Positions 1 through 485 of a stretch of 485 bases of DNA are shown in pieces. The notes under the pieces are model-generated. The model made no database searches. It was not told the DNA's origin and saw only the letters and a program-made list of their open reading frames with translations. The position numbers and the translations under genes are program-made. How positions within the stretch are numbered: position 1 is the stretch's first letter; each line of letters starts with the position of its first letter. The DNA is taken from NCBI RefSeq assembly GCF_003334785.1, contig NZ_QOWV01000087.1; one strand, written 5' to 3'. The stretch is from Escherichia coli. GTDB taxonomy: Bacteria; Pseudomonadota; Gammaproteobacteria; Enterobacterales; Enterobacteriaceae.

Positions 1-33
1 GTGTTGACGAACTCCTGCCATGGAACGTAGTAC

Positions 34-396
34 TCACCAATAAATAAGCGTCAATACGGTGCTCCGTTGACGCTTACTTTCATTCGCCCGGTAGCATGAA
101 CCATTATCCGTCAGCCACTCCACTGGAGACGCCGGAAGCTCGCTGCCAAAGCGGCGTTCCACTACTCCCAGCATGACGTCCTGTACTGTTTCACTGTCGA
201 AGCCACCCGTTGTGACCGCCCAGTGCAGTGCCTCACGGTCACAGCAGTCCAGCGCGAACGTGACCCGCAGTTTTTCTCCGTTATCACAGCGGAACTCGAA
301 CCCGTCAGAGCACCATCGCTGATTACTTTCTTTCACAGCCACTCTGCCGGTATGTGCCCGTTTCGATGGCGGTACAGCGGGTTTTCGCTCAAGCAA
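34..396 (-). pseudogene. insD: Internal fragment of an IS2-type (IS3 family) transposase OrfB/InsD, integrase-core (rve/DDE) region. Intact as a 120-codon ORF but truncated relative to the full-length transposase of about 300 aa, so most likely a non-functional relic.
   Basis: The translation [105 protein letters not shown] is near-identical, with a handful of substitutions, to the middle of E. coli IS2 InsD as I recall it. It contains the IS3-family motifs W-x-x-D (D codon at 304..306) and D-N-G-S-x-Y (D codon at 106..108). The glutamate of the DDE triad and everything C-terminal to it are absent, and the last 15 residues ([14 protein letters not shown]) are read from unrelated flank. The annotated start is a TTG (394..396) with no Shine-Dalgarno-like sequence upstream, and the frame stays open upstream to the window edge at 485. 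Confidence 0.85.
45..76. other. Perfect 10-bp inverted repeat (TAAGCGTCAA, 12-nt spacer, TTGACGCTTA), a potential stem-loop or palindromic protein-binding site; function unknown
   Basis: Read directly: 45..54 TAAGCGTCAA is the exact reverse complement of 67..76 TTGACGCTTA. Inside the spacer, CGG (57..59) can pair with CCG (64..66), leaving a 4-nt loop TGCT. On the minus strand the stem is followed by TTTATTGG, a modest T-tract, and it overlaps the 3' end of the transposase-fragment ORF (stop at 34..36). Confidence 0.45.
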
Positions 397-409
397 CAGC
401 GCATTCTGG
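77..409 (-). mobile_element. IS2-like insertion sequence remnant: internal segment of orfB only, with no terminal inverted repeats, no orfA and no orfA/orfB frameshift window in this sequence
   Basis: Protein-level resemblance to IS2 InsD begins at the codons for QNALLLER (about 397..409) and ends just after the codons for SCYRANE (about 79..81). DNA outside these limits does not resemble IS2 ends as I recall them and is visibly more AT-rich. Boundaries are approximate, about +/-10 bp. Confidence 0.7.
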
Positions 410-463
410 GTAACCGGCTCATTTAAACCGTCTGGTCTGTTTCCTCCGGCTCTACAAAAATAA

Positions 464-485
464 TGTCCATCATTTTTAATGGACA
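464..485. repeat. 7-bp inverted repeat TGTCCAT / ATGGACA around CATTTTTA, in an AT-rich tract at the window edge
   Basis: Read directly: 464..470 TGTCCAT and 479..485 ATGGACA are reverse complements, separated by 471..478 CATTTTTA. It may continue beyond the window. Confidence 0.4.

Follow-up and report, generated by a model that had tools for sequence, protein, structure and literature searches.

Our analysis indicates that positions 78..409 of the window, by which we mean the whole 485-nucleotide stretch of Escherichia coli DNA that was analysed, are a dead internal piece of an IS2 isoform (orfB/insD codons 98-207) lying between the ends of two other insertion sequences, ISEc47 and ISCro1. 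We assign this reading a probability of about 0.93. The features of the window are as follows.

1..47, plus strand: the last 15 codons and the TAA stop (45..47) of ISEc47 tnpC (RefSeq NZ_AP022177.1, ORF translation).
48..77, plus strand: the right terminal inverted repeat region of ISEc47, ending ...GTTGACGCTTAC at 77 (ends of related elements, megablast).
34..78, minus strand: the tail that the ORF gained at the junction, where the ISEc47 terminal repeat and the end of tnpC are read from their opposite strand (IS2 identity stops at base 78).
78..409, minus strand: the internal IS2-isoform fragment, with a partial rve domain or DDE catalytic core (blastn, codon mapping, NF006918, rve, PGAP).
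106..108, minus strand: the second catalytic aspartate, InsD D198 or OrfAB D306, in LTDNGSCY (translation, codon mapping, PMC3219604).
304..306, minus strand: the first catalytic aspartate, InsD D132 or OrfAB D240, in WCSDGFEF (translation, codon mapping, PMC3219604).
394..396, minus strand: the nominal TTG start of the ORF, which is the codon of internal InsD Leu102 (frame open and IS2-homologous upstream, QNALLLE...).
410..485, plus strand: the left end of ISCro1, with its repeat starting GTAACCGGCTC at 410 and the tnpA ATG at 463 (annotation, pGZM7a copy).

The window contains a 120-aa ORF with a TTG start at 34..396 on the minus strand (ORF listing with translation), which a first-pass annotation had described as the middle part of an IS2 InsD-type transposase. 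This description was confirmed by blastn and by two protein profiles. Window positions 78..409 correspond to nt 1036..705 of the K-12 IS2 reference (IS2A, NC_000913.3 381260-382590), with 94.0% identity over 332 nt (20 mismatches, 0 gaps, E 2e-148). The NCBIfam profile NF006918 ('IS2 transposase TnpB') matches the ORF at profile positions 98-207 of 301 (E 2.8e-72), scoring 243.9 bits against a full-length cut-off of 597, and Pfam rve (PF00665) gives a partial domain match at model positions 3-83 of 102 (E 9.4e-15). Codon mapping onto full-length InsD showed that the IS2-encoded span in the window covers residues 98-207 of 301, equivalent to OrfAB 206-315. The ORF thus exists where it had been placed, and one correction applies to the coordinates: the IS2-derived DNA is 78..409 rather than 34..396, with homology running 13 bases upstream of the TTG. 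The RefSeq annotation (PGAP) gives window 70..405 as a pseudogene, 'DDE-type integrase/transposase/recombinase; incomplete; missing N-terminus and C-terminus'.

In genomic context the frame of the ORF stays open upstream of the internal leucine codon as far as a GTG within ISCro1, for a length of 155 aa. Beyond the other junction InsD reads ...ANETRQFARML and the ORF sequence diverges, its final 14 codons and stop being read from the ISEc47 end on the opposite strand. The TTG is not a real initiation site, and both the start and the tail are artefacts of the junctions. A sigma-70 promoter scan of the window returned zero promoter-like sites, and an Rfam scan of both window strands (E up to 1) returned zero matches. 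We infer that ORF 34..396 is not expressed.

The catalytic triad of IS2 OrfAB consists of D240, D306 and E342, with W237 three residues before D240 and A341 adjoining E342 (Lewis et al. 2011, PMC3219604). InsD D132, D198 and E234 correspond to these three residues at a constant offset of 108. Both aspartates were found at the codons where the first-pass annotation had reported them. Resemblance was said there to end about 9 residues past the second aspartate, and the last IS2-encoded residue is E207, exactly 9 residues past D198; the glutamate was said to lie some 35 residues past the same aspartate and to be lost, and E234 (OrfAB E342, motif GIAESFVKTIK) lies 36 positions past it and is not encoded. 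The fragment keeps beta-strands 1-4 with both aspartates (codon mapping, PMC3219604), while everything past OrfAB residue 315 is absent, including alpha-helix 4 with E342 and the remaining catalytic core.

The losses extend to the rest of the element. When the full 1331-bp isoform was compared by blastn with 6 kb on either side of the three known copies of the fragment, nothing but nt 705-1036 was recovered. The A6G frameshift site (IS2 nt 409) falls outside the fragment and is missing from both window strands. None of the three loci has the IS2 terminal repeats (IRL and IRR), orfA or the frameshift site, nor the N-terminal domains for DNA binding and oligomerisation. In the IS2 transposase these domains are an H+HTH DNA-binding domain and a leucine-zipper-like oligomerisation domain (PMC3219604). 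Since E342 and the OrfA-derived H+HTH and leucine-zipper-like domains are all lacking, the encoded polypeptide would be unable to bind or cut IS2 ends. The prediction that this could not be an active transposase agrees with the finding of two of the three DDE residues and no E342; the identity with an IS2 OrfB holds, and no complete DDE triad occurs in the ORF. Judged by what it encodes, 78..409 is not a functional IS2 or IS3-family element, as it has no full triad, orfA, A6G site or terminal repeats.

Homology to IS2 stops on both sides because IS66-family elements begin there. The breakpoints, 77/78 and 409/410, coincide exactly with the termini of ISEc47 (left) and ISCro1 (right), both of which belong to the IS66 family and have annotated tnpA, tnpB and tnpC genes. 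On the left, the ISEc47 tnpC CDS (WP_000080164.1) ends at base 6047 of the chromosomal locus, which is window base 47, and megablast matches to IS66 ends stop at window base 77. The same right end of ISEc47 was also seen with other flanks and 8-bp duplications in TUM2802 and SHP24; in TUM2802 it is shared by ISEc23, an element related to ISEc47, whose 8-bp duplication is TTTCATTC. On the right, a single copy of ISCro1 on pGZM7a measures 2699 bp and has an identical end and an 8-bp duplication (CCTTCTGG), in line with the published length of 2699 bp and 8-bp target duplication of ISCro1 (PMC12115866). Both flanks thus show the tnpA-tnpB-tnpC arrangement, terminal repeats starting GTAAGCG or GTAACCG, and the 8-bp duplications of IS66-family elements, and their TnpC proteins are 51% identical to each other.

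Within the ISCro1 end, an inverted repeat (TGTCCAT-CATTTTTA-ATGGACA, window 464..485) overlaps the ATG and first codons of tnpA. The same positions were flagged as the window's only terminator-like hairpin, on the minus strand, a number within the expectation from shuffled sequence. This repeat could affect the initiation of tnpA translation or block read-through from outside.

Copies of the arrangement are rare. The window is 100% identical to the chromosomes of E. coli WP7-S17-ESBL-04 (WP7; NZ_AP022177.1, 2830798-2831282) and of isolate AF58 (NZ_OZ547038.1), and its bases 59..485 are 100% identical to the plasmid pWP7-S17-ESBL-04_2. When 44-nt queries across each junction were searched against 5426 complete E. 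coli genomes, K-12 included, both junctions were spanned in three records from 2 of the 5426 genomes, namely WP7 (chromosome and plasmid) and AF58. In PLSDB the junctions were spanned by the WP7 plasmid only. For exact junction 28-mers, one gave 0 matches in metagenome contigs and the other 0 matches in species-representative genome contigs. The fragment with its junctions is thus known in three copies.

In the two chromosomes, ISEc47, the IS2 fragment and ISCro1 behave as a single block. In WP7 this unit is 5572 bp long (3537..9108 of chromosomal locus L001, with the window at 6001..6485); it lies inside the 5' end of yceK and is bracketed by an 8-bp direct repeat, GCAAGGTC. In AF58 it lies inside yegP (2090..9108 of locus L002), bracketed by a different 8-bp direct repeat, ATTTGATG. 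Removal of the unit together with one copy of the repeat restored the K-12 sequence exactly, with 112 of 112 bases matching, at both sites. The two units differ from each other by 2 mismatches and by an insertion of the IS110-family element ISEc45 in AF58, which adds 1447 bp (about 4412..5858 of locus L002) and breaks the ISEc47 tnpC; further movement of the AF58 unit would need ISCro1 or another IS66-family copy in trans. The outer ends of the unit, the left end of ISEc47 and the right end of ISCro1, are identical at 16 of 30 bases; the two ends of ISEc47 itself agree at 17 of 30. Because the unit has its own 8-bp duplications and exact empty sites at two places, it appears to have moved as a compound element that used the left end of ISEc47 and the right end of ISCro1. 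We consider it likely that two only distantly related IS66 members here form a 5.6-kb compound element that had not been described before, and that it has transposed as a unit at least twice.

The unit resembles Tn5, Tn9 and Tn10 in that two insertion sequences bracket a passenger and the outer ends jointly give one target duplication around the whole. It differs from them in that its flanks are different members of a family, with the 51% TnpC identity noted above, in direct orientation, and in that the passenger, 332 bp left over from a third insertion sequence, includes no selectable gene. The plasmid copy has been rearranged. On pWP7-S17-ESBL-04_2, IS1203 has replaced the unit's ISEc47 except for its last 19 bp (4745..6019 of locus L006), and at a distance of about 3.3 kb there is a second, inverted ISEc47 that IS1203 interrupts as well (1..2665 of the same locus). 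A single inversion between the two inverted IS1203 copies was considered as an explanation for this structure and was rejected, as it does not restore an intact unit.

The fragment most likely came to lie here in a small number of steps. ISEc47 and ISCro1 would both have inserted into one copy of IS2, and the pair would then have transposed by its outer ends, carrying the 332-bp IS2 segment along while the remainder of IS2 stayed where it was. The 120-aa ORF would be an accident of that history with no function of its own, and the fragment would persist because it lies inside a mobile compound unit. The first of these steps has a real parallel in strain SHP24, where an IS66-family element lies inside orfB of an IS2 copy of the isoform found in strain JJ2434 and is flanked by an 8-bp duplication (GCAAGGTT). 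As in the window, the interrupting element has the right end ...GACGCTTAC. The SHP24 case differs in being a single insertion, at IS2 nt ~1197-1204, with both IS2 remainders in place, whereas the window has two different IS66-family elements and no IS2 remainders.

A progenitor with two insertions was defined by an IS2 remainder joined to the left end of ISEc47 and by the right end of ISCro1 joined to an IS2 remainder, each with an 8-bp duplication. The expected junctions were AACATCCTGGCGAACTGACGTGTTTCATTC|GTAAGCGTAAAG... and ...GAGTCGCTTAC|CATTCTGGCGCATGGTCC, with duplications TTTCATTC and CATTCTGG, and the two junctions that would mark such a progenitor read AACATCCTGGCGAACTGACGTGTTTCATTCGTAAGCGTAAAGCCAATGCCGTCT and ATACGGTTCTGACGAGTCGCTTACCATTCTGGCGCATGGTCCGGTAAACACGTT. 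In 5426 E. coli genomes and 72,556 plasmids there were 0 spanning matches to these junctions; only the uninterrupted IS2 half was matched. As the progenitor was not found, the two-insertion history is put forward as a proposal, and one or both breakpoints may have arisen by deletion or recombination. The resulting alternative, that the same dead fragment owes its breakpoint or breakpoints to IS-mediated adjacent deletion or to recombination instead of two insertions, is in our judgment unlikely, though it deserves to be taken seriously. It would account for the lack of a progenitor junction in the genomes and plasmids searched, and this region rearranges readily, as is seen where IS1203 cut ISEc47 down to its last 19 bp on the plasmid. 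The position of both breakpoints exactly at intact IS66-family termini and the single-insertion analogue in SHP24 speak instead for insertion, although each is compatible with deletion as well. Under either route, the fragment is a dead piece of IS2.

Over its 332 nt the fragment departs from K-12 IS2 at 20 nucleotides and 7 amino acids, which might suggest an old copy decaying by accumulated point mutations, and the first-pass annotation had left open whether the sequence was such a copy or a distinct isoform. Comparison with JJ2434 spoke for the isoform and against decay. That strain carries an intact 1331-bp element, 95.6% identical to K-12 IS2 (4264-5594 of locus L005; WP_096928816.1), which PGAP annotates as a non-pseudo IS3-family transposase with programmed frameshift; its OrfB is identical to that of K-12 IS2 at 286 of 301 residues and scores 693 bits on NF006918, above the 597 cut-off. 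The fragment is 99.4% identical to this isoform by blastn (2 mismatches in 332 nt, no gaps), and 18 of its 20 differences from K-12 IS2 are common to the two. The fragment has just two private changes, one synonymous and one A179V. Relative to K-12, 12 of the differing positions fall in synonymous and 8 in non-synonymous codon changes, the latter giving the 7 amino-acid changes, and codon comparison with IS2 found no indels or stops in the fragment. The isoform is also widespread. It occurs in Nissle 1917 and other strains, exact 30-mers from it are present in 625 to 895 of the 5426 E. coli genomes, and plasmids of Escherichia, Klebsiella, Salmonella and Serratia carry 99.4% matches to the IS2 part of the window. 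Decay by point mutation is thus very improbable. On these comparisons the fragment derives from a distinct IS2 isoform and was truncated recently, its damage being truncation and not decay, and the JJ2434-type isoform is clearly indicated by sequence as its parental type. The JJ2434 element differs in being full length with a complete OrfAB, the window corresponding to its nt 705-1036 with the private A179V. The gapless segment shared with K-12 IS2 orfB/InsD likewise includes W237/D240 and D306, whereas the window holds only 332 of the 1331 bp and none of the terminal repeats, orfA, A6G site or E342 of that element. An origin in the partial IS2 copy of a K-12 cryptic prophage, or in a homologous locus, had been suggested with reservation in the first-pass annotation, and the searches gave it no support. 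This suggestion is almost certainly wrong: IS66-family elements form the flanks, the locations of the unit are yceK, yegP and a plasmid, the sequence is no more than 94% identical to K-12 IS2, and K-12 was among the genomes searched and has neither of the junctions, which occur in 2 of 5426.

It could also be proposed that the ORF yields a truncated catalytic-core protein with a modulating effect on IS2 transposition, such as that of a dominant-negative subunit. A frame that is open for 155 aa in context, and the retention of beta-strands 1-4 with both aspartates, would be in keeping with such a role. The absence of promoter-like sites from the window argues against it, as does a start that would have to be either an internal Leu codon or the GTG in the ISCro1 end, followed by a C-terminal tail that is junction read-through. 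The protein would have neither of the domains described for IS2 DNA binding and oligomerisation, and substitutions that appear to disrupt the IS2 catalytic core have been reported to abolish binding altogether (PMC3219604). With only three copies known in addition, we regard an expressed regulator as extremely improbable. Taken together, these analyses favour a dead internal fragment of an IS2 isoform held between two IS66-family elements.

Several resemblances were observed among the target sites of these elements. The sequence TTTCATTC at window 78..85 is also the target duplication of the independent ISEc23 insertion in TUM2802 (3523..3530 of locus L010). The unit's GCAAGGTC resembles the GCAAGGTT of the SHP24 insertion in IS2 (4078..4085 of locus L004), and CATTCTGG at window 402..409 resembles the CCTTCTGG of ISCro1 on pGZM7a (3499..3506 of locus L011). 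The junction search required 28-mer words, which favours two of these coincidences and partly explains the recurrence of TTTCATTC. No target consensus was found in the flanks of 11 distinct insertion contexts with the shared right end. IS66-family elements were also observed inside the same IS2 isoform in SHP24 (1424..5273 of locus L004) and 189 bp from it in JJ2434 (1952..5594 of locus L005), and the association of IS66-family elements with this isoform seems to recur in unrelated strains.

Truncated copies of insertion sequences are common debris in E. coli genomes. The fragment belongs to a familiar class, that of truncated IS pseudogenes, and PGAP had already annotated it accordingly; the compound ISEc47-ISCro1 unit is the only mildly new element here. 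Gene counts and surveys of transposase variants should leave the 120-aa ORF out, given that both its start and its tail are artefacts of the junctions. The IS2 scrap serves instead as a molecular tag, marking the ISEc47-ISCro1 pair as having apparently moved as one unit into yceK and yegP, with a related copy on a plasmid. If the compound movement is real, a single transposase of the IS66 family is able to pair its end with that of a heterologous family member, and the nesting of insertion sequences is a way in which new mobile units can arise in multidrug-resistant E. coli lineages.
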